A DNA stretch of 64,000 nt from Moniliella sp. 'wahieum'. Lineage: Eukaryota. This document shows, in pieces, positions 14,412 to 63,645 of this stretch (positions within the stretch are counted from its first letter, which is position 1; each line of letters begins with the position of its first letter). A model generated the notes under the pieces. It saw only the letters and a program-made list of their open reading frames with translations. It ran no database searches and had not been told where the DNA came from. The translations under genes and the position numbers were made by a program. The stretch covers positions 1-64,000 of the forward strand of contig RSEE01000089.1 in the NCBI GenBank assembly GCA_003971905.1, written 5' to 3'.

Positions 14412-16902
14412 GGCGGTGCCCTGCTGTGCGCCCCTTTAGCCCTTAGGCCTAGGCCTTATACAGCGCGGCTGAGCACGGACGCATGATGCGTGCATGATGC
14501 ATGATGCGAGCGACCCATGGCGGCACGCAACCAGCGACGGGTGAGGCTTGGCACGCGTGACGCATGACGCAGGGCTGCGTGCAAGGGACCGAGTGACGTC
14601 AGAGCCAGAGACAAGGTGGGGTACGGAGCGCCGGCGCATTGCGTGGCACTGCGTGGCGCTGAACTGAGTCGCAGTACTGAGACTGTACTCAGTACTCAGT
14701 GCGCACGCACGGACCAACCAAGCTTGCTGGCACAGCAGCCATGGTGCACGGGCCAAGCGGGGCACGGCGACGGTGAAGACGATGAAGCTATGGCCTGCTA
14801 CACACAGGCTCCAACAGGCTACAGCGTGGACAGCTGGTCCGTCGGGCACTGCAAGTTCTGGGAGCTATGGAATAGGTGCTCAAGACGGGTGCGGCGATGC
14901 TATGGGTGCTGGAACACGTTTTGCTGTGGACATGGGTATTAGCCCCGGACGGAACGCTATCATGTATCAACCCCTCCTCGAAGACACCTATTCACCCATC
15001 CCAGGAGACCCCTAGCCCCTAGCCCCTAAGCCCTCAAGCCCTCCAGCCCTCCATGAAGAGCGCCTCAGCCCTCTGCTCCTTGCCTGCGTGAGAGTGTTGC
15101 TGAGTGCAGAATCGGACCGAGAAATTAGATCTCAGATCACAGATGAGATCTCAGATTCACCCAAGCGCCTTTGGGTCCAACGTCCCTGGGCCGAATGCAT
15201 GCGCTGTTGTGCGTTGTGCACGCGCAGAACTCAGCAGCACTCACCATCGTCTCGTAACGCGTAATATCCATTACTTGCCACCTCGCCCTCGTCAGCGTCA
15301 CGAAAGGACGCAACATGGCGCATGACGCGGTGCGAGTCACTGACTAGGGACAGTCCACTAGCCACTGGCCACTGGTCCCTCGGCGCCACCTGCTGCTCAC
15401 AGCTACATTCTGCTACATCCTGCTGTCTCCCCGGGATGTCGGAGCGTGCGTGACGCGTGACGCGTGAGCCACAGGCGGTGTGGGATACCGTCATGGCAGG
15501 CAGTGAGCTTGCTCTTGCTTGAAGCTGGTGGAGGGACGTCCGTGCGCAAGAATATCGTTACCAAACGTGACCGTCACCGGGAGCCACATTCGACGCCAAG
15601 AGCTAAGCTTAGCGCTTAGGCTAAGCGCTACCCAATCACCGTCAGCGCGTCAGACGTCATTCACGGTCAGCCAATCACCTGAGGCCTGCCTGGAGGCCCA
15701 ACACATGTTGGGGTGCATGGTAGGAAGGAATGTTTGTGCATGGCTCGTCTTCCTTCCCCATTCAATATTCAATCCTCAATACTCGAGTACTCATCGATCC
15801 TCGAGCTCATCGCCATCTCCATTGCATATCTGCCGCGTCATACGCGTCATTCTACGAACTGGTTGGGCCATCACAGGGAGGGTACACGTCATGCGTCATG
15901 CGCGTCATGCCGACAGCGCCAAAGCACGGGTGCACGGATGCAGGGATGCACGGATGTCTTGAGCTGGCCGTGGATGTCCAACAGTTGGAAAGAGGGTCAC
16001 CGGTCAGGGACTTCGCGAGTGAAGCTTGAAGCTAGTGGCTTGAAGCGTGAAGGTAGCACGAAGCCTAAAGTGAGCAAAGTGACCAGAGAGTGGAGAGAGG
16101 TGCAGCGAAGGGGAAGCATGAAAGCCCGCATCGCTGCCATACGGATAAGTCCGAGAATTCGATGGGCACCAGGCCAATGTGCGGTGCGCCACCAAAGGCA
16201 CGACGGACGAGAGGGAGCGTGAGGCCTGGGGGAGCCTATCCTTCCCTCGACCTCATCGATCTCATCAGTAGCCAACTACTCAATGGCAACGTGGTGGCGG
16301 CATGTATCATGACTGCATGACTACCAGCCTGCGCTTGTCACATGTCACGCGTGGTTCATTGGCTGGCTCCGCTCTGTCGTCACGCGTCACGCGTCATCAG
16401 ATCTCAGATCTCTGGACAAAGCATTGGGCATCGAGTGAGCTACGCTCAGCCAGGACTACCCGCCTGCCCCCGTCGTCCTCCGCGGCTTCCCCCGCTCCGC
16501 CCCCGCGCTGGCCTTCGACAGCCTGCTCGGTACTCAGGCCCTCTCCGACTCCCCATCCAATCCATCCCCTGCCTGCGTCGCACAGCATCACCATCACGCA
16601 CCACCCCCCGCACGCATCCCTCACCCCCACCGCGGGTGATGTAACCCCATCCCATCCATCTCCCCCTCCGCTTCCCCCTGCCAACGTCCGTGCGCCCAGC
16701 CGATTGCGTCAGGAAGATCGTCAAGCGCTCTTGCGCGGCCAACGTGCGACGGGGAACGGCTACCGGCTAACTACGCTCCACGCGCCAACACTGGGCCCGT
16801 GCAGACCATTCCGTCACAGGCCTCAGGGCGCTCTTTACTTTCCCAACTGCACAGCCTCCCCCGTCCTCTCCCCCCAGCAGACCGTGCACGAGCCATGGAC
16901 TG

Positions 16903-16910
16903 TATATAAT
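16903..16910 (+). promoter_or_regulatory. TATA box followed by CT-rich leader
   Basis: TATATAAT ~115 bp upstream of ATG 17022. Confidence 0.55.
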
Positions 16911-17021
16911 ACCCCCTCCCGTCGCTCTTTTCCTCATCTCTTTTCCCCCACCCACCAGATCTTCTGGCACCTCCCTTTTCCATCTTCCTCTCTTCTGTTT
17001 CTTCTAGACAACACTTCAACC

Positions 17022-17759
17022 ATGGGCCTCTTTGACTCTGTACGTGATGTGCTCCCACGGTGTCTACCGCTCCTTTCACCCCTTCGTCCCCGTGGCCCCG
17101 CCCACGGATGGAGCCTGTCCTAACCGTCTTTCCCTCAGGCAAAGCAATTCGCCGAGAACAAGGCACAGGAGAAGTTCGGCGGCAACAACAGCAACAACCA
17201 GTCGGGCGGGTACGGCGGTAACTCTGGTTCGGACTCGTACGGTTCGGGCAACTCTGGCTCGGACTCGTACGGCTCGGGTAACCAGTCCGGCGGCTACGGT
17301 GGCAACTCGGGCTCCGACTCGTACGGCTCGGGCAACCAGTCGAGCGGCTTTGGAGGCAACTCCGGATCGGACTCGTACGGTTCCGGCAACCAGTCTGGTG
17401 GCTACGGCGGCAACTCTGGCTCGGACTCGTACGGCTCGGGTAACCAGTCGAGCGGCTTCGGAGGCAACTCTGGCTCGGACTCGTACGGTTCCGGCAACCA
17501 GTCTGGTGGCTTCGGTGGCAACTCCGGTGGCTACGGCGGCGACTCGGGCTCGGACTCGTACGGTTCCGGCAACCAGTCCGGCGGCTTTGGCGGCAACTCT
17601 GGTGGCGACTCGTACGGATCCGGCAACCAGTCCGGCGGCTTCGGCGGCAACTCGGGCGGTGGCTACGGTGGCAACTCCGGTGGCTACGGCGGCAACTCTG
17701 GTGGCGACTCGTACGGGTCTGGCAACCAGGGTGGCTATGGCGGCAACAGTGGCTTCTAA
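17022..17759 (+). CDS. 212-aa Gly/Ser/Asn/Tyr-rich low-complexity (prion-like) repeat protein
   Basis: Exon 1 17022-17039 (MGLFDS); intron 17040-17138 (GTACGT..CCTAAC..CAG); exon 2 17139-17759 open to TAA: AKQFAENKAQEKFGGNNSNNQSGGYGGNSGSDSYGS... with an 18-aa/54-nt repeat. Confidence 0.85.
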
Positions 17760-18467
17760 TCTAAAGAAGCTAACTGGAGGCCTCGTGACGGCCCATGGAC
17801 GTCTTGCTATGCTTTGGTCGCCTGAATGTATTGATCCTGCTCGCTGAATAGAGTGGAAATGATTCCGTGTGTGCGTCGACAGTAGGAGTATCTAGAGGAT
17901 ATATAGTTGGCATGTCAACTTTTGGGTTAATGTCAAGAAATAAGGAGGTCGGTGAACAAGGAGCGTGCATGTAGCTTTGTTTGGCAACAAGTTGATGGAC
18001 GCGAGCGCAAACTCGCGGTGCGCACTGCGCTTTCATTAATCATTGCCGCTGAAATATCTCCGTCAGAGCTGGGATTATCGATTACGCTCGATTACGGATG
18101 GCGCGTCACGCGTTTCCCTGACGAGAGCCGACATCAGATGGTTGGTGTGCCTTGGATCCAACTGCGCCTGTGGTTTAAGGGTAAAGCATCCTTGCGTGAC
18201 CGCTATATCCGGTTGGACTGCCTGGTCTAGCCTTGGAGCTTGTACCGCGACGAGGCCATGGACTACCTGGTTACTAGTATACAGGTCATACCCTTGCCAT
18301 TAGCAGCCAACCAAGACGAGAAAAACAATGCCTTCCCTGAGCCTCACATAGATAATAGGCAAAGTGAGTCTATATAAGCTCTCAAGGGTCAACGTACCGG
18401 CTCCGACGTGCCCGTGGCCCTGCTCCGCTCACAAGACGTTGAACGTTGAGAGAAGCGAATCTCTATA

Positions 18468-18625
18468 CTGCAACCATATCGTTGACGGAGCTTAAGACTG
18501 CGACAACGAATTGCTGCACCTCAACCGACCCGGGTTCATCCGCGTGTGCTGCTTGTTTGCGCCAATACCGTGTAAGAAGTATGCTCGCGTCGTCAAAACC
18601 AAGGGGAAAACGAACGGGCCATACT
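18468..18625. repeat. Dispersed coding-like repeat, copy 1 (second copy 45733-45860)
   Basis: ccatatc-ttgac-gagcttaag-ctg..aaccgaccc..ttcatc..gcgtgtgctgcttg..gcgccaa shared between the two loci. Confidence 0.7.
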
Positions 18626-19883
18626 GGCCCGATGGTCTTCTCGTGATTAACTATCAAGCGGGTGCGATCGGCCAACGAATCAGTGTTGCGCAGGAGAATG
18701 ATGAATGAGAGTGAGCTGCCCAGTGAGCACCACAAGCGTCCGAACGGGAGGGTGTAGGGGTTGAAGTATAAACGGAGTTTCATCACCTCCCGCACCACCC
18801 ATATCTTCCCCCAGGAGTGCAATGACCCGGCACAGGCGAGCAAGTCACACTTATCTTTACTTGCCACACACCAAGAGGCCACAATCAGTCGGCTGCAAAG
18901 GCAGCTGTATCTTGTCCTCCCCCTCATCGGCCTCGTCGATCATATGGCCATTCTCGTGACAAGCGAATGGCCACGGAGAAGCGAAGGTCGACGGTGGAGG
19001 TGGGTGTGCCTGGCGTGGGCATGACGCTCGGGAGCATGAGCGAAGCGGCGCGCGTCAAACAATCATTAATCACCAGCCGAGCGCTCAGGCTGCGGCGAGC
19101 TGAGCTGGTAGCTGAGTGTGCTGATAGGGTTATGGTGGCCGACGATGCCGAGGGTGATTGATGGCTCGATGACTAGGTTTAAGCTGTAAGCCTAACCAGA
19201 CGCCTTTGAACTTTGGTTATCGATTCCCACTACTCGGTTCTGATCTTCTGGCTTGGATGCCGATCGCAAAAACAAGACTGCGCATGGGTGTTGGCACAGC
19301 GGGAGAGGAGTAGCAGACGCGCAGCGTGCCAAGCCAATGCGCGATGTCAGTGTCAGGCGCAGATTGGGCGGATGCGCAATCGCAGCTGCGGGCAAAAGAA
19401 AGACAGCCAACGAAACCGCATGGTCCGCTCCTCCGAACGCCCGCCCGCCTGCAGGCGCTGTCTGCTCGCGCCGATCTCCCAGGCACGGGGCCAGTGGGGC
19501 GGCGTGCACCCTGTGCCCCCGATGCATGATGCATCCTGCATGCCGCCCAGCCAGCACCAGGCGAGTCACCCCGAGGCACTGCCCAGCCCCTGGCCGCCCC
19601 CTTGCCGTAGCAGCCGCAGAGCCTGAAACGCACAGCGCTGTTACATGTTATCGAATATCGGTTACCGATTACCGGTTACCAGTTAACGTCAGCATTATCC
19701 ATCGATTATCGCTTGTCGCTTCCTCGGTTCATTACTCATTACCCATTCCTTGTCAAGCACCTCGGCTTTCCTCGTAACCCCCATCCCACCTCGCAGCCCC
19801 CCGCCTGCACCCGCTTGAGGCCGCCGTTTGCCTTCCGTGTGCCCTCCCACCGCCACCACCACCACCACCTTGCCCTGCTTGCC

Positions 19884-21820
19884 ATGGCCGCTCACCTCCC
19901 TGCTTGGCCTCGTCGCTCTCGCAGCCGCCGCCGTGTCGGCGCAGTTTGTGCCCGCGCCGGCCAACCTGACCACCAAGCTCGGCTTTGCCAACGTCAGTGT
20001 GCATTACAAGCAGGTGCCTGCTGGCATCTGCGAGCTGCGCGACGACGTCAAGTCCTATTCCGGCTTTGCCGAGGTCAGCCCCGGGCAAAACATCTTCTTT
20101 TGGTTCTTTGAGGCGCGCACCACCGATCCCAAGCAGGCCGAGCTTGCGGTCTGGATCAATGGCGGGCCCGGCAGTTCGTCCGAGATCGGGTTGTTCCAGG
20201 AGCTTGGGCCGTGCCGCGTGCTGCCCAACGGCACGCTCGTCAACAACCCCACTCGTACTCTGAGGTGGCCAACATGCTCTTTATTGACCAGCCAATCTCT
20301 ACTGGCTTTTCCTTTTCCGACCCCACCCCGGGCTACATCAGCTCGACTGGCAACCTGATCACCCTGCCGTCGGAAGAGTGCCCAGACTATGCCCAGGCCC
20401 TCGGCACCTGCGGTACCTACTCGTCGCCCAATGTCCTCACCTCGCCCAACTCGACCGAGGCCGCCGCCTCCGACTTTTACCTTGCTCTTCAGGCTTCCTG
20501 GGTGCCGTTCCCGAGTACAAGCGCGACCACTTCCACTTTACAACCGAGAGCTATGGCGGGCATTATGGGCCGGTCTTTTCCCATTACATCCAGGAGCAGG
20601 CCAAGGCCAACGTGTCCGGTCACACTCCGCTTGCGGTCAAGACGCTGACCATTGGGAATGGTTGGTATGACCCGGTGCTGCAGTACGAGGCCTACTACCT
20701 CTTTGCCAAGGACAACTTTTACTTTGGCACCACCCTGTACAACACTCTTCTCTCTCAGCTCGAGAACATTGTGTATGGCAAAGGCAACTGTCTCGACCAA
20801 ATTCGGCAGTGTTACAAGATTGGCACGCCCGAAGTGTGCTCGGTTGCGGACAGCTTTTGCGCCAACGAAGTGGAGAATTTCTTTGATGTTGTATCCGGCC
20901 GCGACGAGGTAAGCCTTTTTCTTTCTTTGCTTTTCTCCACTGTTTTTTCCCGTTTTGCTCTGCTCCCCACACCTCCAATGTGGACTAAAGACTGACTGAT
21001 GTGTAACTTCCCACCAGTACGATTCGCGTGAGCTGATGCCCTCCGTTCCCCTACGAGGCCTACGTCGACTACCTCAACCAGCCCCACGTGCAGACAGCGT
21101 TGGGTGTGTACACGAACTTTCCGAGTCGTCGACGGTAGTGGGCAACGCGTTTAGTGCGACAGGCGACGATGGGCGGGAATCGGGTACGATCCAAGATGTG
21201 CGTTCGCTTTTGGAGGAGGGGGTGTACGTTCGATGTTGTTGGGCGATGCAGACTACAATTGTGGTTGGTACGGCGGGGTTTGGGGTGGCCAACAAGCTGA
21301 ATGCGTCGGGATGGAGTCGTGCTGGCTTTACCAATGTGTCCACCAGTGATGGTGTGGTGCATGGGGAGACGAGGCAGACGGCACGTATGCGTTTACCCGG
21401 GTCTTTTATCGGGCCACGAAATCCCTTTTACCACCGCTCTTGGCGCTCACCCTGTTCAACCGTACCATCACGGGCGTGTCTCTTGCGGATGGCAAAGTGG
21501 ATGTCCTGCACAACTCGTCTACCTCACCACGGGCCTACCTCACCCACCTTCTTCGAGGGCAACAGTACGGTCCAGTGGAACGTTACGTCCCCCGATGCGA
21601 CGTACAACACCACCACTGGCGCGCCCAATCCGGTCCAGCATCGGACTCTTCTTCTTCCCTCTCTTCTTCTTCTTCTTCTGCCGGGGCGGCGCGGCGCGCA
21701 GCAGCCGTGTTGCTGGACACCGAGACGCCCATGCTGCGCAAGAACAAGAAGAGCTTGATGCCCAAGTTTGAGGCTCTTCTACGCACCCGCTCGGCAGGGC
21801 GTACCCGCCACCGATGCTGA
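19884..21820 (+). CDS. Secreted serine carboxypeptidase, peptidase family S10
   Basis: Signal peptide LLGLVALAAAAVSA; FFWFFEAR; WINGGPGSSS; MLFIDQPISTGFS; catalytic TESYGGHYGP; IGNGW; GHEIPF. Intron from 20909 (GTAAGC..CTGAT..CAG ~21017). Confidence 0.93.
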
Positions 21821-21882
21821 TGCCTCGGGCGTAAAGTAAACGGCAAGAGACTAATGTTTGCGAGGGGACAAATCTCACCGTG

Positions 21883-21912
21883 GCCAATGGGCCAATGGGC
21901 CAATGGGCCAAT
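21883..21912. repeat. (GCCAATGG)n 8-bp tandem repeat
   Basis: gccaatgg x3 plus gccaat. Confidence 0.8.
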
Positions 21913-22130
21913 ATTAGCCCAGTGGGCCAGACTGATGCACTTTGTCCGTTAGCACGGCACGTTGAGCGTTCGAGTGTGAGCGTTCAACTGTGGACTGTGA
22001 GTGTTGGGGAGCGGCTAGTCCTTCTTTTGATATTAATGGCATTTGATGGTATTGGACGGTATGTGTACTGCTGTTGGTGGGGTTGGTTGGGGTAAGAGGG
22101 AGACCGAGTAATGGGTTAGGGTAACAAGGG

Positions 22131-22188
22131 GGCAAGGCAAGGCAAGGTAAGGCAGGGCAAGGCAAGGCAAGGGTAGGGCAGGACAAGG
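22131..22188. repeat. (GGCAA)n imperfect pentanucleotide microsatellite
   Basis: Direct reading. Confidence 0.85.
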
Positions 22189-22749
22189 CTATTTTCCTGT
22201 TCGCTTGGTGCCCTCCCAACCACCTATACCCGTATTATTTACTCTGTTGGTCTACTTGGCCACATGCACGGGACAGTTGTTCCATTTGTTCGATTGTTCC
22301 ATTTGTTCCACTCAGTTTGCACTTCTCTTTGCTCTAGTGTTTGCCCAGCGGATGTTGTGCATGTTGGGGACAAAGGGAGGAAAGGGCCAGCCCCTGCGCT
22401 AGGAATAGCATTGAAGCAGTACATGTACTTCCCGTCCAAGCGACTGGGCTTCAAGTATAGTACTTGATCAGCTTGATCAGCTCGACCAGACCCAGCTCAA
22501 CTTCACATAACAACTCACAACTGTGCATTCCTGTACGGCCCTGCAGTGGCGAGCGGGAAACAGCAAGCTACGTAGCTACGTGTATGGCAGACAAGGAAGG
22601 CAAGCAGAGACCAATGGATGCATCAGTGGGTTAAGGGAGAGTGCTGAACACATTTTGCATGCTGCATTTTTTGGGTGGTGGGGCAAAGCACTGCAGGCAC
22701 GACCAGCAAGTCCAGATCCAGAGCAAGGAAGCGAAAATCCTAACTCATC

Positions 22750-36427: not shown

Positions 36428-36650
36428 CTGGTTTGGTTCGTAAATGGCCCCATTCGCATGCCATCAATCAATCGTCAACGTTCAACGTTCAACGTTCAAC
36501 ATTCCACCGTGAACGAGGTGCCACAGGCAACATGATAGATACGCGTAAACAGCTGGAAACAGCGAGGGTGGATAAAGGCGAGAGGGACGTCGCCATATCC
36601 AAACAGGGGGGGGAAAGACGAAGAAGAAGAGAAGAACAAGAAGGGCATGC

Positions 36651-42134: not shown

Positions 42135-45100
42135 GCGCTGCGGGAGGGAGGCAGGGGGGCTGGAGGGGGAAATATGCTGGATCGCACATGAGGTGGCGGT
42201 CTGGTGTGAGGATGGTGGTGGCCGGGAGGGAAGGGGACATGGGGTCTGGTGCGAGATGAAGGATACATATGCTTGAGGGGGGAGGGTCATGTCATCCGTC
42301 ATTAGGCATGAAGCTCGAAGAAGCATTAGGATCAGTATCATGTACTGGCTAGCCAACAGCTTCAGCCAGCGCCCTCGGCCGTACGAACAGGCCATTTCTA
42401 TAGGGGCGCGCGCGACCTACCGCACAGCGGCAGCATGTGCGGGCCGTCTATTAGACATGGTGCATTATGTAGCGAAGACCTTGCCACGGCGGGCCATTCC
42501 GGGAAGACAGCCGGGAGGCACAGTTGGCCGCATCGCGGGCGTCGCGCATACGGACGGCAACCAGCGCTGCTTACGCGCGTACGCATTGCGCTCCTTGGGA
42601 GGGGCGCAGCCGTACCAGGCCATACCCGTACGGCGCGTACCGGCGCGTATCCCAGGAGGTGTCAGGGTGGGTTGATCGTGGGTGGACAAAAAAATATGAA
42701 TGCCCATCGCCGTTGATCGGTGATCAGCGATCACGCGCACGTACTAGCCATGTCCGCGGACCTGATGCCCACGGCCTCACAGCGCTGGAAGGCTTCTATC
42801 ACAATTGGCACCACCTTGGTATCCAATTGTGGCACCAGCACTCAGCTGCCTCAGCGCCCCAGCGCCTCCCCTCCAATTCTGCCGGTATCCGCGATATCCC
42901 CTACAGGGTGGATATCATCTTCTCTGACGTCGAGAAGGGGTGGGCATATGTAGTCGCCGTTCGGGCAGTGACTAGCGACGCGTGACGAGCGAGTGATGCA
43001 TGACGGTGACTAGGTGACTCTGCAAGTGACCGGTGAGTGCCGGTGATCCGGCCGGTGACCCGGGACCACGACGCCGATCATCGATCAATCTGCAAGAATT
43101 AATGATCGTAATCCCTACCGACTAATACACACGCTCAATTTCAACCAACGCTTAGCGCTTAGGCTAAGTGCTAAGCCTTAGCGCTAAGCGCTAAAAAATG
43201 AATTAATAATTAAATTTTATTTTTATTTTCGCGATCATCGATCATTCATCACTGATCGTGCTGGTGTACGCGTTGTTTGTGTACTGATGTACTTGTGTAC
43301 CTGTGGGGGAACCCTCGATCATCGATCACGGAACCAGTGTCACATGTTACGTTCCCTCACCCGCCTGAGGCCTTGGACCAGGCACCAAGGCCTCATGAGT
43401 TCTGAGATCTCCCTATTTGCTACTGTAGAGGGGAGGAAAAAAAGGTGGGTCCCGGTCATGCAGGTCACCGGTCATGCAGCTCATCAAATTCATTTCTACT
43501 TGACAAAAAAAATGGGAAACGCGTCTGCCACTACTGACAGTGACGACGTAAGGCTCACCAGTGCGAACTCTCAGCGCGGCCAGCCCAGGATATCGGCGAT
43601 ATGATTTTGCCTCTCCACTGGCGTGGAACGATGGAACGGTGGCAAAGGTGGCGAGCAGGCGGAGGGGAAGCCCCAGTAAACCGGGCCGTAGGCACGGTGT
43701 GGTCCCCTAGTGCCGACTGCACTTTGTTGTGGTTATAGACAAAGAAGCTTTTTCAGCTCCCCACAGGCTAGTCTCTCTACCCTCCCAGCTCTCACATCCC
43801 CTTTTTCTCGGTCTTTACGCGGTCTCTAATATAGTATTCGTTTCCCTCCAAACGCGGGCTTGCTGTGACAACCGTTATTGATGCCTTCTCGCACATTTCC
43901 CTCTTTGCCTTATTGCCCGGCGGCTGTGGTGCTATCATAGTCCCGTGGGTCACTAGCTGCATTGTTGCACTCGTGTGCACTCTCTTCTCAATTTTCTCAC
44001 ATTCTCAGAGATGATCACATCTCCTCCTTCAGCTTCATGCTTCACGCGTACGCGCCACGTATCACTATATTGACCCTATCTATCCTATCTCCAATGCTCA
44101 TTGCGCTCAGTGCTTCAGTGCGCTCAGTGCTCGGTGAGCAGTGCTCAGGGCTCAGTGCTCAGTACCCAGTAACTCAGTACACATGCTCACGGTGCACAGA
44201 CAAAACCATACATACGGTTCTAGTTCCTTTCCCGAAAGACCTCTCTAAAGGTCCCAGCTTCACCTAGTATATACGCACAAACGTAGCAGAGCCTATGGAG
44301 AAAAGTGGAGAGTGCGGGGTAAACCGGTAACCATTAACCGGTAGCCGGTAATTCGGGTAAGCACAACGCTATAATCGACAAAGGACCCTACTGTGTTAAT
44401 GTTATACCACCGTCCCAACAGGTAACAGTACTATGTGTAGTCAGTCACTCGCCGTCACTAGTCACTGTCACTGTCATGTCATTCGAATATCTTGAGTGCT
44501 GAGCCTCAGCGCTGTGAGGTTTGAGGCCTGGGGCCTGAGGCCAGGCAACCACGTTACGTTCACTGTTTACAATAGTCATTTATTCAGAAAATGAGTCCGC
44601 GAGAGGATAGCGTGAAAAGGGCAGTGGATAACTGGTTGTTGTGTTATCAAAATAACCAGTGGGACCGTTACTGATGGATGTTTTGCCTACTACTCAGGGG
44701 TAGATGACAGGCGGTAGATATATAGTGGCAGGGAGATAGGTTGATGGTGGGGAAGATAGAGCACGTAAAGCTTAAAGCCTTCTTCAGCTACAAAAGTATA
44801 TAGGCGTTACATGCTATGTATCCATCCGGCTTGAGATCTAAGATCCTTCGAGAGCTTGAAGCTTGATAATCGATAACCGGTAACCTTGAAGCTTGAAGTT
44901 CAAGCTTGAGATCTGAGGGTCCATCGGAAGAAGCGAAAAGAGCGTGTCATCCTGCCAACATTAAATGATGTCAAGGCCCACGATGACTCGATGACACGCA
45001 TACGCCGGACTAACTGAGCCTGAGCGCACAAGTTTATATGTACAACGCGTCGGGTCATAGTGAACTTTTGGATGTCTGATGGTAACAGCACGGTACATGT

Positions 45101-45700
45101 GGCAACTTGTAGCGACGTCTTCTTCACTCTCCTATGGAGACCTCAATGGATGCTGAGGCGCTGAGGGCGCTGAGGCTAGTAGTGAAGCAAAGATGGATAG
45201 GATAGTTGCGTAGGCGATCGATTGCGAGGGCGAAAGATGAGCGCTCAAGCTGATCATTGGTAGTCGGAGGCAGCTACATAGAGGAGAAAATTATTGGTCG
45301 CTGAGCTGAGGCGCTGAGGCTTAGCGCTCACCGTGAGCGGCCACCAGTCTCTGCTCCCTAGTCACTGGCTCGGATATTTACGTGACGCGTATCCACGCGC
45401 TCGCCGCATCAAATGCCGCATTGGATCCCATGTCACATGTCACATGTCACAGTTGGCGCAGTCTCCGCGGAGTCCCGGGGGTTAGTCACTACTCAGCTAA
45501 TCACTCTCGTCACTAGTCACGTACTAGTCACTACGCCACTTCGCTATAGTCACTAATGACCAATGAGATCGATGAAAGACCAACAGAAAAGTGCTCCGCG
45601 AGAGCCTGCTCGCTCAGGCCATTCCAGACCGGTTCCTTATAAAAACGGTGCTAAGATGTTCCTGGTAACCGCAATGCTATATCCAGTCGTCCATGTCTCT

Positions 45701-45860
45701 ATGCTAACCATATCATTGACAGATCTCTCGTCTGCATCCATATCATTGACAGAGCTTAAGGCTGGGACAAAGAAGCGCAACGCCTAAACCGACCCGTTCA
45801 TCTTGCGTGTGCTGCTTGGTAGCGCCAACCCCGCTTAAGGAACCAGTAGGGGAATCGCCA
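45701..45860. repeat. Dispersed coding-like repeat, copy 2, with internal 30-bp-spaced duplication
   Basis: Matches 18468-18625. CCATATCATTGACAGA occurs at 45708 and 45738. Confidence 0.7.
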
Positions 45861-47135
45861 GGAGATCAGGACCCTCTGGTACCCGCCATCCGTTCCCATA
45901 CCCGAGATAACAGCGCGTGTGGATACAGATGAACATGGTAGACATCCGAGGAGTGGTGAACCACAGCTCCATTGAGACTCTGTATAGTCAAAGACTGGTA
46001 TAAAAATGAACATGGTCAGTCGTCCATTTGCTTCTAATACCGACTGTGTATAATACCATTCCAGCATCTTCTTCATATCGTGAGCTCCATGTGGTCTTCG
46101 ATCCTGCTGCTGAGAGACGGGAATGGAAACACCCCCGGACATATCACAACTGTGATTTTATCTCTGTGTTTTACCGGTTACCGGGGCTCCGAGGGCCGTC
46201 AACGATCACCAAAGATCACCAAGATCACCTCTCTAAGCCATACTGATAGACTTGGTCTTCTCATCCAGGAATCGACCGCGCTGAGAGGCTGAGCGCTGCG
46301 CTGAGTGCGCTGAGTCCGGATTCGATCATGTGTTGTTCGATCTGGCCCCAGACCAGTATGGGGCCCAACGCCATGATGCATGATCCCTCGATCCCTGCCT
46401 CTTCTTTTCTCTGCTGGGCCTATAGTCCCACATCCTGTCTTGAAAAACTGCCACTGCATTCATCAGCTTTGCGATCCAACAGACACGCTGTGGGAGACGT
46501 ATAGGCGAATAATACCAGTGTGCAGTGCCGTAGAAACCTTTTGCTTTGTGCGATGTATATGGTGCTGACTGTGCACGGGTGAAGCCGGTGAAGAGCGAAG
46601 CTCCATCTACTGCAGGAAGAGGCTGAGGGGCGGACCAGATGAGTATACTGAAGGAGGCGGTGGGGTTTGCTTTCTTGAAAGTGCCGGATTGAAGCTGTAC
46701 TAATGAGATGTGAGCGTGAGCTGTTGTGGGGCGGTTACATTTTATTTTGGCGTGTGTGTAAACAAAAACGCGGCTGGGCTCTCCGCCGAGCGGGTGTACT
46801 TTAGAGTCTCTCGGGCGCTGGCGAGCTTGATGAGCTTGATGGAACTGGTAAAATGAGAGGAATTGTGGGGTTTTTATTAGGCCGAGGCTGAGCGCGGCGA
46901 AGGCTTAATTCTGAGACCGGGAGGCACTGCTGGGGCAGGCACAGCGCCAGTCTGCGTCCGCTCGCATACTGATGCGCGCTGGCCAGTGGCCTCGTGCTGG
47001 TGAATTCACCACTCCACCATGGAAGGCCGGTGGGCTGCGAAAACTTTCTTGTCTCCCTGAGGCCTGACCCCACTCTCTGCAACCACTCATCGTCCATCAT
47101 CGACATCATCAACCGCCCCAGGGCTCCATCGTCTT

Positions 47136-48520: not shown

Positions 48521-48605
48521 ACCCCTGCTTCCATGTGGTCCATTCAACTTTCATACCCTTCTTGCTCTCCTGCTGCATCATCTCTTATCCATGAAGGACG
48601 TTGTC

Positions 48606-55559: not shown

Positions 55560-56053
55560 TGACCTCTCGGGCTATGTTCTTTCATCACTTTTTGTGCACT
55601 GTCTGTACGATCTTGTCTGTACCGTCCCTCACCATCTATTAGTCATTGCCCTGCATTTTCCACCATCGGGTACTCTGATAGAGGGGCCAGACGTCGGACT
55701 GAGAGGCCAACTCGCTAGCGCACTTCCCTACTAGATCACATTTGGTCTCGTGAGAGAAGAGGTGAAAGTGGGTGTTGTCGCTATGAGTTACACGACCTGC
55801 CAGGGCCGGGGGAGGCGCTGGCACGCTGACGTAAGCGGGTACTGTACTGTCCAGGGGTAAACTAAACGTTATAATCAGCAGTGCCCGCTTCCTCGGCCAG
55901 TCTACTAACCGCTCCCCTGCAGCACGCCCAGTGGGAGGGGGGCAGTGTGGGGGCTTGGCTGGGCCGAATGTGGCGCAGAGCAGACAGGGCGAGTCTGGTC
56001 CCTTGCCGTTGCAGCGGGCGAGGGGTAGATGCTTTGGTTGGCTCCTCCACCAC

Positions 56054-56078
56054 CTCTCTCTCTCTCTCTCTCTCTCTC
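56054..56078. repeat. (CT)n microsatellite in the EB1 5' leader
   Basis: Direct reading. Confidence 0.9.
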
Positions 56079-56097
56079 CTTCCACCTTGCCCCCGCA

Positions 56098-57167
56098 ATG
56101 GGAGAGTCGCGCACCGAGCTGATTGCCTGGCTCAACGAGCTTCTCGGCCTGGGCTACACCAAGGTCGAGCAGTGTGGGACGGGGGCGGCGTATGCTCAAA
56201 TCATCGACTCCATCTACGGTTCGTCTCTGCTCTGCATTGCTGATCGCTCATGCGTGTGCTCTCCCTTCCCCACAGCACAAATGCTGACCTATAATACCGC
56301 TGTGCCAGGCAACGTGCCCATGTCCAAGATCAACTGGAACGCGAAGCAAGAGTACGAGTACTTGGGCAACTACAAGGTTCTCCAAGAAGTGTTTAAGCGC
56401 AAAAGATTGCCAAGCCGATCCCGGTCGAGCGGCTGACCAAATGCAAGATGCAGGACAACCTCGAGTGGCTCCAATGGAGCAAGGTATGTCCTCCTACTTT
56501 TCCCCTCCCTTTCTCGATCAAGGACAAAAGCTAACTCACTCACAGAGGTTCTGGGACAGCAACTTCCCAGGGGGAGAATACGACGCTGAGAGCCGTCGAC
56601 ACGGCGCGGTGGCGGGCGCGCACTCGCCAGCTGGGCATGCGGCTGGTGGCCATGGCCGTCTGACTGCTGCCGGCCGAGCGCCGGGGGGCGCAGGGGCTGG
56701 TGCCGGAACAAGGGCTCGGTCGCCTGTCTCTCCCTCTGCTCGTCGCCCAGGTGCTGCGCGTCCGCCCGCCGTCGACTCGGCAGCCGTTCGGGCGGCGCAG
56801 CAGCAGCATGAGCAGGATGCAGCGGCTTTGGCCTCGTTGACGGAAGAGGTGGATGAGATGCGGGCCAATGTGGCGACGATCGAGCGAGAGCGCGACTTTT
56901 ATTTTGACAAGCTTCGTGAGATTGAGATTTTGGTGACGGAGCGACTGGGGACAGTGTCGCAAGTTCCTGGACACTCGAAGGACGAAGTGGCACTCCTTAC
57001 TCAACTTCAGACTATCATGTACGCCACGGACGAAGGGTTTGCCGTGGAAGGCGAGGAACAGGTGAGTCTTGCGTGATGATCAAGGTGGGAGATCACTATG
57101 GGAAACTGGCACAGAGGCTGACGAAAGGTCGAAACAGGGCGCGGTGGATGAAGAACAGATGTTCTGA
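56098..57167 (+). CDS. BIM1: Microtubule plus-end tracking protein EB1 (Bim1/Mal3/Peb1)
   Basis: CH domain MGESRTELIAWLN..KVEQCGTGAAYAQIIDSIY..KMQDNLEWLQW; EBH ERERDFYFDKLREIE..IMYATDEGF; tail EEQMF. Introns 56219-56308, 56484-56545 and 57062-57137. Confidence 0.96.
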
Positions 57168-58032
57168 TCCCTCCTCTTCTGTGCAGCCATCGATAGGCAT
57201 CTCATTTCTATCTTCGATCTCAATCCCCAATGCCTCCCAGCAGCTCTTGAATACCTTCATCCATTACCCTTGCAAACATCTGTCTCGGGCAATTTGTCCA
57301 CAATGCGTAGAGCATGTGATACGTCGAGGAGGATATTTTTTCTCTTCGTCGTCCTCACTGTTGGCCTCCTACAACGCCACAGCAATCATGCCAGGGTCAT
57401 GAAACCCTCAACGTTCAAGTGTCCTCTGCTAGTGTGTGTCATACTGTACCACTTAAGATGAAGACGAGAGGCGCTCTGGGTTGACGTTCGTCATCAAGAT
57501 GTGAGATTTTGGATGTGTGTATAGTCGGAAGAAGATGAAAGGGAAAAGGATAATGGTACACAGCAATAACGAAGAGTTTTACCATTATATAAGTGACTTG
57601 CAGGCCAAGGTCGAGTGGAGGCCAATGTGACGAGGAGGAAAAAAATGGAACAACGAAAGAGAGTCCTACCTATGGATTGGCAGCTATAAGATCCAAGAGA
57701 GGCGAACCGTCTTGTCGGTCCCTGTCCAACACACTAAAAATGAATTGACTGCTCCTTCGGTCCCTCCTTTTCCCTTTTCCACGAACGCTTTGCTCTGTTC
57801 CATTATCCATGTTCACATATCCTATGTGGGGCTTCTCTGGCCCCGGTGCTGTGGGTCTCACTTTTCCATAGGGTCTCTACTGTGCTGTGCAGGTTAGGTT
57901 AGGCATAAAGTAAGTGCTAGTCTGAGTCTACTGTTCACAGTCGCGAAGAGTTGGAAACAAGGGGCTGTTCAGCGACCTCATCGGTAGGGTTAGATGGTGG
58001 AGAAATATGCAACAAAGGAACTGTCGGGCAAG

Positions 58033-58113
58033 GGCCTCTTGGCGCAGCGGTAGCGCGTGAGATTCCAGTTCCTGGCTTCCTCAAGGTCATCCGTTCAAAT
58101 CGGGTAGGGGTCA
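58033..58113 (+). tRNA. tRNA-Trp (CCA) with short intron
   Basis: Acceptor stem GGCCTCT/AGGGGTC; D stem GCGC/GCGC; anticodon CCA 58065-58067; ~9-nt intron containing TGG; T arm ATCCG-TTCAAAT-CGGGT. Confidence 0.9.
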
Positions 58114-58115
58114 TC

Positions 58116-58121
58116 TTTTTT
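58116..58121 (+). terminator. RNA Pol III terminator T-tract
   Basis: TTTTTT immediately after the tRNA. Confidence 0.75.
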
Positions 58122-59859
58122 GCGTCCTCCCAAATTTTCTTGTTTACCACTCTGCTTAAATGGAGCACGTCTTGGGGGCGTCCCCCCGGCCTGTGAGTCA
58201 ACGATACTTAGCATTTCATTGTCCACCATTCCATAACACGAGCCATGAGTAATACCAACATACATAATAGTCACGTTCAACATTCGTTTTCTCTCAGTCT
58301 GTTGTGGTGACGACGGCGCGCTTGCAGTGCGCTATATATGCCAACCGCCAAACCAAAAACTGCCAAGGTGAGCCGGTGAGATGCCAAAAGATGATGAAAC
58401 AGAGTCTCATCGCATATATATCTGCACACCTGTTGGGAAAGTGAAAATATAATAACCGCATATACCTATAATGGAGGGACATTATAGGCTGCTGAGAAGG
58501 GAGCCGTCCCTTGACACCACACGCAGTACTCTCTGATTTTCGTCTTTTTCTGACCTCTCTCGGTTAGTCAGAGACAGATGGATTGTCGAAGATCGTTCTG
58601 TCTGAATCGCTATAACCACACGCACAGCTTGCATGATGCTCAGAAACTTCTTTCACGGTCTATAATGGTCGAAATATGGGCACAGCCTTTTGTTCCCTCC
58701 GTCGAACAACAAAACATCCCACAAGCCTCTCTCTTTCTTTCGTGTGGGTACATAACTACATGTTACTCGCACACAGATGGCACCATGGACACACTACAAT
58801 ACTACCGTGGCATGACTTGATGGCTCATCGATCATCGGCTGCACGACTCGAGCTCCTTCATCAACAGTGCTTCGGTAACTAGTAACTCTTCACATAATTT
58901 TGGATGTGGTGCGGGTGGAAAATAATGGTGCCACCATGGAACGAAGAATTGAACGCAGGACTGAACGCAGGGCTGCTAATGAACGTAGAACTGTGGATGA
59001 AGTTTGCACCAGTGGAAACTGAGTGCAACTAGGTTCACTATGAGGCCGGGAGGATGGAGAGTATAAAACACTCATAGATATATTATTTTGCTCATAAGAA
59101 CGGTGTGAAAGAATCGGCTGAGGGCAGTGCACATGCAGGATGATCGATGATCTAACTGAGCGCTTTAACAATTTTTTACTCGCAAATCCTCATTCACGCC
59201 GTGGATGCAGATGGCTCTCTCCGTCTACAAAATCTCTAAGCCAAGGAGCTCTTAGAACGGTTGCATAAAGTGGGAACGGGGTTGCAAGTAGAGTGAAGTA
59301 TGTGGTGTGACGAGGAGACCACCAACAACGAGAGAGAACAGATAGAACAGAGGGATAAAAGGGAAGTAGCTGTGCGGCAGCGCGTGGCATCGAGAATGGC
59401 CCCGTGTTTGAGACCACGGTGCAAAAGAACAAGTCGTCCGTTCGCCATGCAGAGAGAGAGTGCGGTGGTATGGTCCCCGTTAACGAGGATAAGGTTCCAG
59501 CGATGTGGCCGATATAGCCATGGAAGTGTTGCCACATCATGCGTCACTCCTCACAATCTACCAAAGGAAAGACCGATGGCCAGAAATGGGATTCATCAGT
59601 TCACTATCAAGTATCCGAGTACCGACGACCACTCATTCAGCACATCAGGCAACTCCTCCTGCTCTTAGTCGTCTTTCTACTCCCTGCCTAGTCCACCAGC
59701 TCCCGTCCTCAGCTCTTCGTTCCTCAGTCCTCCCAACAGCCCGTGTGTGCCTTCCTCGTGTCACGTCAAAGCCCAGCTCAGTTCAGCCGCGTGTGATCCT
59801 CCCTATAGCCACGCCCCCCCCAGTCCCGTCCAGTTCCAGTTTAGCAGCGTAGGTCCTCC

Positions 59860-60112
59860 GCTGCCTCCTCCCTTCTTGAACCACGAATGCTTCAGACACG
59901 CTCCTGCCGCCCAAGCCGGTGCTACGCAGCCTTGCCACACCTGCACAGCCGCCTCTGCTATACGCCGAGAGGCCTCTCCTTGTCCCTATCTCCGCTCAGA
60001 TCCCCAAATCAGTCAAGCGCGTAACTACCGTGAGTCGACCTTCCGTATTAAGGGATGGTACAACCCCAACTATTTCCTGGGTGAGCCCCCTGGCGGGGGG
60101 CCCGCCCGTGAC
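59860..60112 (+). mobile_element. Dispersed LTR-like repeat, copy D (3' part)
   Basis: gcttcagacacg..cccaagccggtgc..cagccgcctc..aggcct..gtcccta-ctccgctc..taccgtgagtcgacc..aagggat..cccctggcgg..gcccgtgac matches 1703-1918. Confidence 0.75.
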
Positions 60113-60439
60113 CATTTTCCCGATTCACCCAGTGATGGAGACAGTTGGATGGGTGGAAGGTAGGCGCACGGGACACGTCAAAAGCACCACGGATGGTGAG
60201 TTGTGTAGACGTATACTTGGTGGCGCGAGGGGCTGAGGTTGTGTGATGAATGCTGGGTGCTGGGGGATGGTTGGTGGTAGTGCTAAGCATGTTACATGAT
60301 GTCTTTCAATATGCTACGTTGCTCCTGCCAACCGTGACGCGCTGCATATGCTCGGCCAAAGCCAACGCCGATGAGCAAGCGGCGCAAGGAAGCCCTGACC
60401 ATGACCGGTGGCCGGACTGGGTACTGATTTGTGATGTGC

Positions 60440-63400
60440 AACATGTGACCGGTGACCTCACGCAGGGAACTAGTGAGGTAGTGAGACAAGGCTCACTCAG
60501 GTCCAACGTCCGGCTCGAGCAGGTACCTACCCTCGGACCAACCCTCAGGCCCTGAAGCTCAGGGTAGGCCTGAGTGCCTGAGGCCCGATGCATGATGTCT
60601 GATGCACCTGATGATACTAATGCTGCGCCTGAGTACCTGAATACCCTATCGAGTGGGGCAAAAGGATCTCTGTGCTGCTTTGCTCCGTCGCTCAGTACTC
60701 AGTGAGCGAGTGGCCGGTGGCCAGTGAACGTGCTGAACTCAGTATGCCCGTCCTTCGGCGCATTTCTTGGGATTTCCAGCTTCAAGTGAAGCTTCAGGTT
60801 ATTAATGTGGACAGAAAGTGCCATGCATGGCTGGTCACCCGGTCGACCCGAACACCGAGGTCACCGCGCCCGAACAACCAAAAGTGACGTGTGATCGATT
60901 CTCGATTCTCGAGATTATCACCGGCACCAATCATCTGTACGATGTCGATGTTTCCTTTCGTAATAGGCAGCCTCTCTGGCCTCAGACTGGGGCCTCAGGC
61001 TACCTTAGAGTGAGCTTCAGACTGAAGCTTCAGGAGCCTACTGAAGCTTGAGAACCGTTGAACGCCTGAGCCTAAGCCAGCTGGCTAGCTCAAGCTCAAG
61101 CTTCAAAAGCTCTCAGATCTCTCTAGCTTCAAAAGCTCTCAGATCTCTCCAGCTTCAAGCTCTCAGATCTCGCCAGCTTCAAGCCATCAGATTTCGCCAG
61201 CTTCAAGCACCACTGTCACGGAAATCATTAATCAAGCTCAAGCTCAAGTGGCCTCTTCCTGAGATGTCACATGTCACATAGGAAGCGGCCTCTTCCGGAG
61301 ACGTCACATGCTTACCTCCGGTGCTGTGGAACAGGGCCTATACAGTTCAAGTGCGGTACTGAAGTGACAACGTATGTGACCATGTGACCATAGTGACTAT
61401 AGTGACTCGTGCAACGAGCACCTACCGGCCCCTACCCAATATCGGCCTCATTTTCAGGAGCGTCACATTACTCCTTACCGGGTTACATATTCATGTCACA
61501 TGTCACCATGTCACCGGTCCCCGCCGGCTTTCCGACAAAAAAACCACTCTCTGGTCTAAGATCTGATGCAGATTATCAACAGTTTCCAGATCTCAGAGAC
61601 GTGTACATACACGTTGTACGGCCATCTATACCGTGAAAAACGTCCAAAGTTCGCCTAGTAGTGACATCATGAGGATGATCTGGTGTCGCATCTACTCTCT
61701 TGCCCGCTCTGCGCGCACCAAGCGCCGAGAGATGTCGTATCTCAGCCTGAAAGCGCTAAAGTTCACCTGCTCAGCCACTCAGCCACGGTCCGGTTCGCTC
61801 ATCAGTGCTACATCCGTCAGCTTATTGCTAACAGAATGATTTGGTGCAGGGTACACACGGGTGTCTAGACAGTTGTGGGTGCGAAGCGTGAAGCTGTGTG
61901 GCTGTGGAGCTTCAAGTGAATAAGGCGCATGTTGCAGCATAGAGTGAGTATACGGGCGAGATGATCACCACACGGACTCCGTGGACGTAGCGTATACGCC
62001 TGAGGTTTTTACACTATCCATCAAGAGAAAATGACACATAAGGTGTCAATGTGATCCACACGGTGTGTGGACTTTCATCCCACTGGGGGATCTGGCAAGG
62101 ATGGATGGTCTAATTCTGCTCAACGTTCGATCGGCGAATATACTTTCAGCCCCGATGGAGGGCTTCACAAGTGCAACAGTACTCTATCCAGGAACAGTAT
62201 GACGAGTCCTCCACAAACGGTAGCCAATGTTCGTTCGTGTTGCCGTTACGTATTACATGTTACACTCAATGAAAAAGGTGATGAAAGAGGATCATCCTCC
62301 GAGGTTGTGTGGAGACGGTTACATGTTACATGTAACCGGCTATATACGACCGCTGTGTTGATGGCACCATGGGAGAGTGTGACATGTCAGTCTCAGTAAG
62401 TATATCCCTCAGGCGAGTCTCACCAGAGTATCGGGGATACTACAGTTACAGCTGTGCGCCCCTGAGGCTCAGGGCGCTCAGGCCTGATGGGCCTGATCGA
62501 TGTCTGATGAACCTTGAGCGCGCTCAGGCTGAGCGCTGAGCCTCAGCCACACTCGGCCGTTGCACTGATGCGCGGCACAATACTCCTCAAAGGACTGGAG
62601 GATGCAATAATATATGCGGAAAAATCGGAAGAATCCTAGATCAAAGGTTCATGCTCACATTATGCATCATGAAGGGAAGCCTAGCGAAGCTCGAAGCTTG
62701 AAACCCCCTGAGCCTGAGGCCTCAGCCTGATGCCTGAGGCTCAGGCCTGAGTTACGAAGCTTGAGACTAGAAGCTTGAAGCTTAAAGTGACTGAATAAAG
62801 GCCAGGTGATACATGAGGTCTTGTGGGGCCCGAGGCAGTGGAAAAGATCTGTGGGGCTGAGGCGCTGTATCGCTTATGAGGCTCTGGATGAGCGCTCAGC
62901 CTGAGCGCGCGCTCAGCTGAGCCCTGAAGGTGAGGGGCCTGCGCTCAGACCCAGGGATCAAGCACTGTGTACTGATGCGTTGAAGCTCTCTGAGAGATCT
63001 GAGATCTGTGAGATCTGTGAGATCTGAGATCTGGGAGCTACTGTATATAGGCCATCTCAATACTCAGTATTTACCCTCAGGCCGGCCTCAGGCTCAGACC
63101 CTCAGGCCTCAGGTGAGGTCTCAGTACCTCAGTACTCAAGTTCCCAATATCAATACACTGTAAACAGTACGTAGTACTCAGGTACCCACAGCAGCCACTA
63201 AGTACTAATGCCACTAGTTGCTAGTTCCTGGTGCTCCGCGCCATGGCGAAGTCACTTCGATCACTTGTGATCGATGATCAGCTTGTTTTGCTGGATGGTG
63301 CTTTTCATTAACGTTTACTGGTTTTACCGGTTACTTCAAGAAGGGGAAAGATTAATGAGGGGGCTGAGGCCCTGAGGCCCGAGGGCTTGAAGCTTGAGGC

Positions 63401-63645
63401 TGATAAGGCACCATATTTCAGACCTCAGAGGGTGTAGTACCCTCTGGGCCTCAGTGGCCTCAGTATCAGCCATTCCATACTCATATAATCCCTTCAAGCT
63501 TCATCTGCTTCAGTTGCCTGAGGAGTGTGTGCGGTGTGGCCTGTGCTCGTCAAATCTGCAGCACTATGACACCTTCGGCCGTTTGAGGGGTCTTGGTCTT
63601 GACGCATGAAAAGCTTGAAGCTTGATTAACTTGATCATGATCAAC
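60440..63645. repeat. Gene-free tract dense in (TNA + palindromic tetramer) 7-bp arrays
   Basis: e.g. CATG-TGA-CCGG-TGA (60442), TCA-GTAC-TCA (60692), TTA-CATG-TTA-CATG-TAA-CCGG (62319), TCA-GGCC-TGA repeatedly, AGCT-TGA-AGCT-TGA (63612). Confidence 0.75.
61099..61209. repeat. 24-26-bp minisatellite x~4.5
   Basis: Repeated AGCTTCAA(AA)GCTCTCAGATCTC(T/G)C units. Confidence 0.85.

Follow-up and report, generated by a model that had tools for sequence, protein, structure and literature searches.

TNA triplets alternating with palindromic tetramers in a 7-bp register in non-coding DNA of Moniliella sp. 'wahieum'

The locus and the distribution of the arrays

The window analysed here is a stretch of 64,000 nucleotides (nt) from Moniliella sp. 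'wahieum' (assembly GCA_003971905.1, contig RSEE01000089.1, positions 1 to 64,000, forward strand), whose intergenic DNA repeatedly reads as a TNA triplet (N, any base) followed by a 4-bp palindrome, in a 7-bp register. Such runs are called arrays below. Using a Pfam scan that took in 199 of the 206 open reading frames (ORFs) of at least 110 amino acids, we found EB1, HSF-type, PQ-loop, polysaccharide lyase 14, DEAD-box helicase and serine carboxypeptidase domains as well as PPR, UNC-93, MLLE, NOP5/Nop and HMG-box domains. The ORFs are often broken up by introns. To judge from its protein-coding sequences, the host is fungal and basidiomycete-like. A NOP58 exon is 90-91% identical to Tilletia species, which are among its best named relatives, all of them basidiomycetes, and the best named relatives of the EB1 and PQ-loop proteins are a Microbotryomycetes species (41%) and Calocera (42%), respectively.

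We found that 72 of the 91 TNA-bounded arrays lie within four non-coding stretches, which together span 10,654 bp, or 17% of the window. The stretches are listed with their numbers of palindromic and non-palindromic TNA-N4-TNA 10-mers and with the expectation from an order-3 Markov model.

14400..16450, unstranded: stretch A, non-coding; 15 palindromic and 9 non-palindromic, expectation 0.8
17950..19800, unstranded: stretch B, non-coding, upstream of the serine carboxypeptidase gene; 6 palindromic and 11 non-palindromic, expectation 0.44
42950..46400, unstranded: stretch C, non-coding, 3.4 kb; 27 palindromic and 19 non-palindromic, expectation 2.2
60400..63700, unstranded: stretch D, non-coding, 3.3 kb; 31 palindromic and 19 non-palindromic, expectation 4.2

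When the four stretches were pooled, 79 of 137 TNA-N4-TNA 10-mers were palindromic, compared with about 7.7 expected from local Markov-3 models, and the autocorrelation at lag 7 was 0.317, compared with 0.245-0.276 at lags 2-30. The density of 7.4 per kb inside and 0.41 per kb outside the stretches is a partly circular contrast, since the stretches were drawn after the arrays had been seen. A codon-usage map was too insensitive as a guide to coding DNA (3.9% called coding) and GC content by codon position was uninformative; the periodicity of 3 bases was used instead. This periodicity is absent from the four pooled stretches and present in the rest of the window, and the evidence from periodicity is independent of how the stretches were drawn. 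Strict 10-mers cover 7.2% of the stretches and 0.4% of the remaining DNA, and these values rise to 18.4% and 3.1% if one violation is allowed. Outside the stretches, 22 palindromic 10-mers were counted where 5.3 were expected. An initial annotation of this DNA, made from the sequence, had noticed no arrays in exons. This holds for multi-copy arrays, but not for single 10-mers, since a few of them fall in long ORFs, for example at 9295 and 31663.

Within the stretches TCA/TGA is the most enriched trinucleotide (1.8-fold). The distances between TGA and TGA and between TCA and TCA peak at 7 bp (33 and 39 pairs, compared with about 10), while those from TGA to TCA show no peak. At distances of 10-30 bp, pairs of the same type number about 10 per distance and TGA-to-TCA pairs about 5; because same-type pairs are thus about twice as common, the local orientation is patchy rather than random. 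Long repeats carrying the arrays were not found in the window, and the arrays are embedded in unique sequence.

Symmetry, spacing and anatomy of one unit

All nine examples cited in the initial annotation, at 14491, 14685, 15125, 15451, 36475, 43178, 44455, 45429 and 50445, are present. Over the whole window the N4 is palindromic in 101 of 247 TNA-N4-TNA 10-mers (41%), where 6.25% would be expected by chance. Simulations with Markov models of order 1, 3 and 5, run 30 times at each order, gave means of 8.9, 8.2 and 19.6 palindromic 10-mers. The simulated maxima were 16, 17 and 28, so that the excess of palindromic spacers over background anticipated in the initial annotation was borne out. Non-palindromic 10-mers, in contrast, are not enriched (146 observed, compared with 140, 121.5 and 113.9 simulated at the three orders).

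The enrichment is confined in several respects. Among the 16 possible aNc flanks TNA alone is enriched, and the other 15 give 3.9-9.7% palindromic tetramers. Among spacers of 0-12 bp, that of 4 bp is the only single-unit spacer enriched, and spacers of 2, 3, 5 and 6 bp are at chance (40/137, 62/200, 8/122 and 4/188), including the lengths of 3 and 5 bp that the initial annotation had named for comparison. The spacer of 11 bp, which corresponds to two units, is also enriched, as expected. Furthermore, 33 of the 47 exact period-7 repeats have units that are symmetric under reverse complementation (chance 10.6%), while symmetric units are at chance level at periods 4-6, 8 and 9. Of the same 47 repeats, each of two or more copies, 31 take the form of TNA plus a palindromic tetramer when the unit is rotated. 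All 12 GC-containing palindromic tetramers occur, as had been claimed, and AT-only ones do too (ATAT 3, TTAA 3, AATT 1, TATA 1), which brings all 16 into use.

An array may equally be described as the 6-bp palindrome A-xy-y'x'-T plus one free base, with two centres of symmetry per period, one within the tetramer and one on N. Hexamer palindromes are in excess in the A..T form alone (317, compared with 210 simulated) and odd palindromes in the TNA-centred form alone (336, compared with 186). Of the 317 A-N4-T hexamers, 101 are flanked by TNA twice and 113 once, which leaves 103 without it; by our arithmetic about 128 would be expected without either flank, and isolated hexamers are therefore not enriched. 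Lone TNA-centred odd palindromes number 215, compared with 170 simulated, while 121 are accompanied by another TNA at 7 bp, compared with 15.5. Because the excess concentrates where a second TNA stands 7 bp off, the enriched object is the pair of TNAs and not the single palindrome. Overall, the observation is confirmed as far beyond chance. We found no description of this grammar in the open-access literature and bioRxiv, which leaves room for a description elsewhere, and we found no described feature class that fits TNA plus palindrome repeats.

The structure of a single unit was read from the bases that vary. In the 101 palindromic pairs the middle N is the same base in 76 cases and complementary in 15, which indicates that the TNAs are direct copies of each other, whereas xy and y'x' are inverted copies. 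Therefore, the statement in the initial annotation that the middle base varies applies between arrays but not within a pair. Among the identical cases, 57 carry C or G and 19 carry A or T, near the availability of TSA and TWA outside the stretches (1516 to 639; S, C or G; W, A or T).

The palindrome is coupled to one flank. In 67 of the 91 arrays half of the palindrome repeats, in inverted form, the 2 nt that adjoin one TNA on its outer side, where by our arithmetic coupling over at least 2 nt would be expected in about 12% of arrays; both sides are coupled in 14 arrays and neither side in 24. The pattern continues for at least 1, 2 and 3 nt in 67%, 52% and 19% of cases on the left and in 54%, 37% and 14% on the right, with a sharp fall after 2 nt on both sides. 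When 12-mers of the form TNAxy-NN-TNAxy were examined, NN was the reverse complement (rc) of xy in 33 of 48, and the mirror form gave 45 of 63; the same test on the 15 other flank classes gave 0-4 each. The inverted dinucleotide derives from the side away from TNA, and the opposite type makes up about 8 of 123 oriented cases. The flank coupling thus identifies the 12-mer TNAxy + rc(xy) + TNAxy as the elementary product, in which N is copied directly and exactly 2 nt are copied in inverted orientation.

Run lengths were counted in the 71 exact period-7 runs that hold the core. The mode is 12 nt (19 runs), followed by 14 nt (14 runs) and 13 nt (11 runs), and extensions by 2 nt on one side (14 + 6) compare with one (1,1) case. 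The four longest runs measure 19, 20, 23 and 26 nt; three of these have the length 7k+5, one of them with 1 extra nt. Two-copy exact arrays of 14 nt occur in several phases, and degenerate arrays reach about 12 units.

The choice of tetramer appears free. The dinucleotides that open the tetramers show no significant departure from the overall dinucleotide usage of the four stretches (chi-square p = 0.09, Spearman 0.68), which points to a sequence-independent generator and agrees with the view of the initial annotation that symmetry and spacing are kept rather than sequence. Neighbouring units with different tetramers share the register in 11 cases at offset 7, compared with a mean of 3.5 (maximum 7) at offsets 8-35. 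By our count, such neighbours differ in one symmetric pair in 4 cases and in both pairs in 7, near the 40:60 ratio that independent draws would give. There is no strand bias among the array types (TCA 33 and TGA 24; TTA 11 and TAA 8) and no bias with gene orientation, and array orientations are mixed within one intergenic region. Single-strand folding of pure arrays is weak (z -2.6, -0.2 and +0.3). Flanks are limited to T..A, the spacer to 4 bp, the period to 7 bp and multi-copy arrays to non-coding DNA.

Individual arrays illustrate these properties.

36475..36500, unstranded: the perfect array of greatest length (26 nt), with the unit TCAACGT, between closely spaced convergent genes; four TCAAC copies split by GT, length 7k+5 with k = 3
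45429..45451, unstranded: perfect array, unit CATGTCA, 23 nt
15448..15467, unstranded: perfect array, unit TGA+CGCG, 20 nt (predicted 19, plus 1)
16378..16412, unstranded: two abutting arrays, TCA+CGCG (19 nt, 7k+5, k = 2) and then TCA+GATC (16 nt)
44865..44885, unstranded: heterogeneous in-register chain GATAATCGATAACCGGTAACC, GA of the left flank builds the first tetramer and CC of the right flank the second
43149..43194, unstranded: degenerate array of GC-TTA-GC and GC-TAA-GC units in both orientations; strong hairpin on 43145-43198 (-19.1 kcal/mol, z -4.8)
62707..62752, unstranded: run of CC-TGA-GG / CC-TCA-GG type in both orientations; strong hairpin on 62700-62790 (-19.1 kcal/mol, z -4.9)
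14491..14507, unstranded: perfect array, unit TGA+TGCA, 17 nt, the first example of the initial annotation

A proposed templated insertion at TNA and the alternatives

The explanation we favour, with a confidence evenly divided between its being right and wrong, is that the grammar is the mutational scar of a TNA-anchored templated insertion of 7 bp and not a code or functional signal. T-N-A triplets in non-coding DNA would be hot spots for one stereotyped insertion, in which the TNA and 2 nt on one side of it (the 5-mer TNAxy or its mirror) would be copied directly and an inverted copy of those 2 nt would be set between both copies of the 5-mer. The resulting 12-mer would read as TNA, a 4-bp palindrome and TNA. 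Repeated at the new TNA, the event would build arrays in a 7-bp register with the length 7k+5. Events templated from the left and from the right flank at one TNA would leave neighbouring units with different palindromes, and the chain at 44865-44885 would be exactly the product expected from one event of each kind at a single TAA. Later slippage and point decay would blur the arrays and add two-copy 14-mers and degenerate arrays. As to the route, a 3' end or nascent strand at TNA may turn back over the TNA and copy 2 nt of its own flank. The intermediate would be a 7-nt mini-hairpin, with a 2-bp stem and a TNA loop, bulged from the nascent or repair strand. Copying would then resume on the original template 5 nt back, as a switch-and-return in the sense of the four-point model.

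Two known processes resemble such an insertion. In four-point or Ripley-type quasi-palindrome events, as described in PMC5453318, a few adjacent bases are copied as their reverse complement before synthesis returns to the original template, and template switching makes perfect small inverted repeats without selection. The 12-mers (33/48 and 45/63), with their re-copied 5-mer, have the same format of reverse-complement copying and return. What differs here is the TNA anchor, the constant 2 nt that are inverted, the return that always lies 5 nt back and the recurrence that builds arrays; the available part of that account of the four-point model contains no such site-specific, quantised form (PMC5453318). 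The other process is synthesis-dependent microhomology-mediated end joining, in which, according to PMC5728401, PMC9303309 and PMC2943611, secondary structures near breaks prime limited synthesis that leads to insertions at the junction, with the flank copied in inverted or direct orientation. Those junctions vary in length and need pre-existing short repeats, unlike the present products, which have a fixed length and composition. Fold-back or template switching therefore fits best among the sequence-independent generators proposed in the initial annotation, given the flank coupling and the 12-mers, while the footprints of a transposon proposed beside it do not fit, as discussed below.

The geometry is probably set by an enzyme acting at TNA rather than by thermodynamics, since it is fixed: T..A and never C..G, 2 nt inverted and never 1 or 3. 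To our knowledge, the only enzymes that target TNA are IS5 and PIF/Harbinger-type DDE transposases. Tentatively, we suggest an undescribed enzyme-driven process in this fungal lineage, in which an activity at T-N-A with a fixed ruler of 2 inverted and 5 direct nt would repeatedly insert mini-hairpin units of 7 bp. The enzyme could be a nuclease of IS5 or PIF/Harbinger type that has been domesticated, or a repair polymerase whose turn-around step is unusual.

Several points weigh against a templated insertion. That the direction of change is insertion is something we infer. A hairpin governed by thermodynamics would favour C-N-G or G-N-C centres and longer stems, in place of the T-N-A and exactly 2 nt that are seen, and a turn over a 3-nt loop without a pre-formed stem is a poor primer for ordinary polymerases. 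Flank coupling is absent from 24 of the 91 arrays, though about 9 of these are expected as chance 10-mers. Slippage also contributes, since exact two-copy arrays of 14 nt occur in several phases (14 of 71 runs), and selection may act, since the arrays occupy promoter-sized intergenic DNA. Finally, the Pfam scan of 199 of the 206 ORFs revealed no candidate enzyme gene and no transposase.

Among the alternatives, the one that survives best is microsatellite dynamics, in which chance seeds expand by slippage and symmetric heptamers are favoured through self-pairing of single strands. We consider it unlikely as the source of the grammar. It would account for the 31 of 47 exact period-7 repeats that fit the grammar, for the two-copy 14-mers in several phases, for degenerate arrays of up to about 12 units and for the strong folding of the mixed-orientation stretches (z -4.8 and -4.9). 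Slippage should, however, be independent of the dyad symmetry of the unit and of any one period, whereas 33 of the 47 repeats are symmetric at period 7 and the excess of symmetry is confined to this period and to T..A. Since non-palindromic TNA-N4-TNA 10-mers are not enriched, the duplication of 7 bp as such is not frequent. The modal run of 12 nt (19 of 71) is shorter than two units and carries a 2-nt extension on one side, different palindromes share the register more often than expected, and pure arrays fold weakly, all of which speaks against slippage.

A second group of explanations invokes transposons that form hairpins, such as hAT, Transib or Mutator-like elements. In formal terms the 12-mer, written as a 5-mer W5 + rc(last 2 nt) + W5, equals TNAxy duplicated over 5 bp plus 2 palindromic (P) nucleotides from one opened flank hairpin, and a geometry as fixed as this would suit an enzyme. 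P nucleotides at opened hairpin ends, as in V(D)J coding joints and in hAT and Transib scars, vary in length and occur at either end. The present units share with them the 2-nt palindromic extension of a DNA end, but here it is 2 nt only, always on the side away from TNA save for about 8 of 123 cases, and always accompanied by the 5-nt direct copy; no spread of P lengths is seen, with spacers of 2, 3, 5 and 6 at chance. The duplication would also be asymmetric, with T at position 1 and A at position 3, and transposition complexes with two-fold symmetry have targets unlike this. No element or transposase was found in the window (Pfam, 199 of 206 ORFs). Taken together, we regard such a scar as improbable.

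We hold it to be similarly improbable that the arrays are a selected element, namely sites of dimeric proteins or a structural signal (mini-hairpin, cruciform or nucleosome-excluding) in promoters and terminators. The arrays concentrate in long intergenic regions adjoining genes, and many units hold A-N4-T hexamer palindromes that resemble known regulatory sites. No protein, however, recognizes palindromes of every sequence, and the use of all 16 tetramers follows composition. Neither strand is preferred, a single intergenic region can hold both orientations, A-N4-T hexamers that stand alone show no excess (103, compared with about 128 expected), the array hairpins are weak and a period of 7 bp differs from the helical repeat. 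No positive support was gained for the chromatin or cruciform code raised in the initial annotation, given the weak folding of pure arrays and the lack of strand or gene-orientation bias.

Even less probable are the accumulated excision footprints that the initial annotation had put forward, in which a 3-bp TNA target duplication would be left with 2 nt from each inverted terminus of an element. The format fits: the triplet stands as a direct copy on both sides of the scar with the same N in 76 of 101 pairs, the bases between are inverted 2+2, and the net gain would be 7 bp per cycle. According to PMC4561436, excision of mariner/Stowaway elements leaves a small duplication with short sequences from the element ends, which resembles the few bases of inverted symmetry flanked by a short direct duplication seen here. 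TNA with a free middle base is the target of PIF/Harbinger-type elements, and for mPing several bases are tolerated in the middle of the duplication (PMC4561436). Excision of PIF/Pong/Harbinger elements, as described there, is generally precise, and both copies of the duplication are left only if mismatched and never when matched (PMC4561436). Moreover, footprints should carry end bases that are constant for each element family and unrelated to the flanks, with one tetramer per family. In contrast, the bases between the TNAs come from the local flank in 67 of 91 arrays, and all 16 palindromes are used at about their compositional frequency. A scan of the window for target duplications around terminal inverted repeats of at least 9 nt gave 37 candidates, 4 of them with TNA, and none was convincing.

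An assembly or sequencing artefact is scarcely credible; nothing was found in its favour, and the rule is precise, strand-symmetric, restricted to non-coding DNA and embedded in unique sequence, which differs from the known error modes.

Further readings were tried and rejected. A trap of stop codons (TGA or TAA in three frames) does not apply, since the TNG flank is palindromic in only 10 of 257 cases and TCA/TTA arrays are as common as TGA/TAA arrays. A simple 7-bp target or tandem duplication at TNA was dismissed on the count of non-palindromic cases (146, compared with 114-140 simulated). Neutral decay of a pair of whole odd-palindrome heptamers fails on arithmetic, as the inner 10 positions are intact and the outer 4 agree in only 37-67%. 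If both ends of a break at TNA snapped back, the spacer would be rc(left flank) + rc(right flank), which fits only 1 of 146 non-palindromic cases, and perfect 10-bp palindromes from a capped hairpin end predict a complementary N, which is seen in 15 of 101.

Other repeats, related systems and significance

The window holds other repeats. A clean hexamer array at 14237-14311, (ATGTTG) x 12.5, borders stretch A just 3' of the gene for the DEAD-box helicase and does not follow the TNA grammar. Within stretch A a telomere-like degenerate run at 15009-15053 has units of CCCCTAG, then CCCTCAAG and AGCCCTCC. The non-coding stretch at about 21.9-22.6 kb is rich in repeats and without the TNA grammar. 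At 21882-21912 and 22131-22182 it carries (GGCCAATG) x 3.9, a period-8 array with the odd-palindrome centres CCAATGG and TGGGCCA, and (GGCAA) x 8-10 and other short repeats adjoin the (GGCCAATG) array. In stretch D a minisatellite of 24-26 bp is present in about 4.5 copies at 61095-61206; its unit holds AGCT-TCA-AGCT and an AGATCT-type palindrome, and a 2-bp indel (AA), which changes TCAAA to TCA, distinguishes the copies. An inverted repeat of 34 nt at 62518-62551 and 62877-62910, 85% complementary and 325 nt apart, contains GCTCAGC and GCGCTGAGC-type units. It probably reflects a shared motif family rather than the termini of an element, because the surroundings are without wider homology.

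A repeat of about 230 bp occurs in three copies that are about 70-88% identical, at 1666-1900, 7400-7640 (inverted) and 59836-60060, and further rearranged inverted blocks lie at 2476-2732 and 7724-7974. As outgroups within the window, this repeat and the inverted repeat at 62518/62877 gave no usable homologous array sites. The region of 1-8.7 kb has a lower GC content (47-54%), gave no Pfam matches and holds four palindromic 10-mers in three arrays (2228/2235, 4816 and 6521); it may be an old mobile element or the flank of a gene family. Between stretches A and B, a coding tandem repeat at 17217-17750 has a period of 54/108 bp, with 8 copies of a 150-nt block in register. It uses many GGC, TCG and TAC codons, seems to encode a repeat protein rich in Gly, Ser, Tyr and Asn, and is without a Pfam match. 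One tRNA-Trp (CCA) gene lies at 58033-58113, outside the arrays, and an Rfam scan of the whole window gave no RNA family at the gathering score.

Intergenic tandem repeats of 7 bp are also known from bacteria. The STRR sequences of heterocystous cyanobacteria are heptamer repeats with fixed sequence families and without dyad symmetry. Heptameric repeats have been described as increased in abundance in bacteria (PMC4692102). The arrays resemble these repeats in their period and their intergenic position, but differ from them in a eukaryotic host, a free sequence and a fixed symmetry. REP, HIP1 and STRR families each have one conserved sequence, whereas the arrays use 16 tetramers and 4 middle bases.

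What would be new is a site-anchored, quantised form of templated-insertion or template-switch mutagenesis. If the proposed insertion is true, up to about a fifth of some intergenic regions (7.2% by the strict and 18.4% by the relaxed count) may trace to one stereotyped event, and the arrays would be an unusually clean natural case of site-anchored templated insertion, with a countable, lineage-specific mutational signature. As a practical matter, software for alignment, indel calling and motif discovery will be confused by such arrays and would take them for conserved motifs.

For the biology of this fungus, the insertion would show how short, perfect palindromes and runs capable of forming hairpins can come about in the absence of selection, and its products would be raw material for the sites of dimeric transcription factors and for small RNA hairpins. 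It would also direct attention to an enzyme activity at TNA, which would merit a search. Should the more tentative enzyme-driven process hold, perfect palindromes of any sequence would be made and intergenic DNA would be lengthened in quanta of 7 bp. The outcome would be a mutational signature that is new and site-specific, together with an inbuilt source of dyad-symmetric sites.

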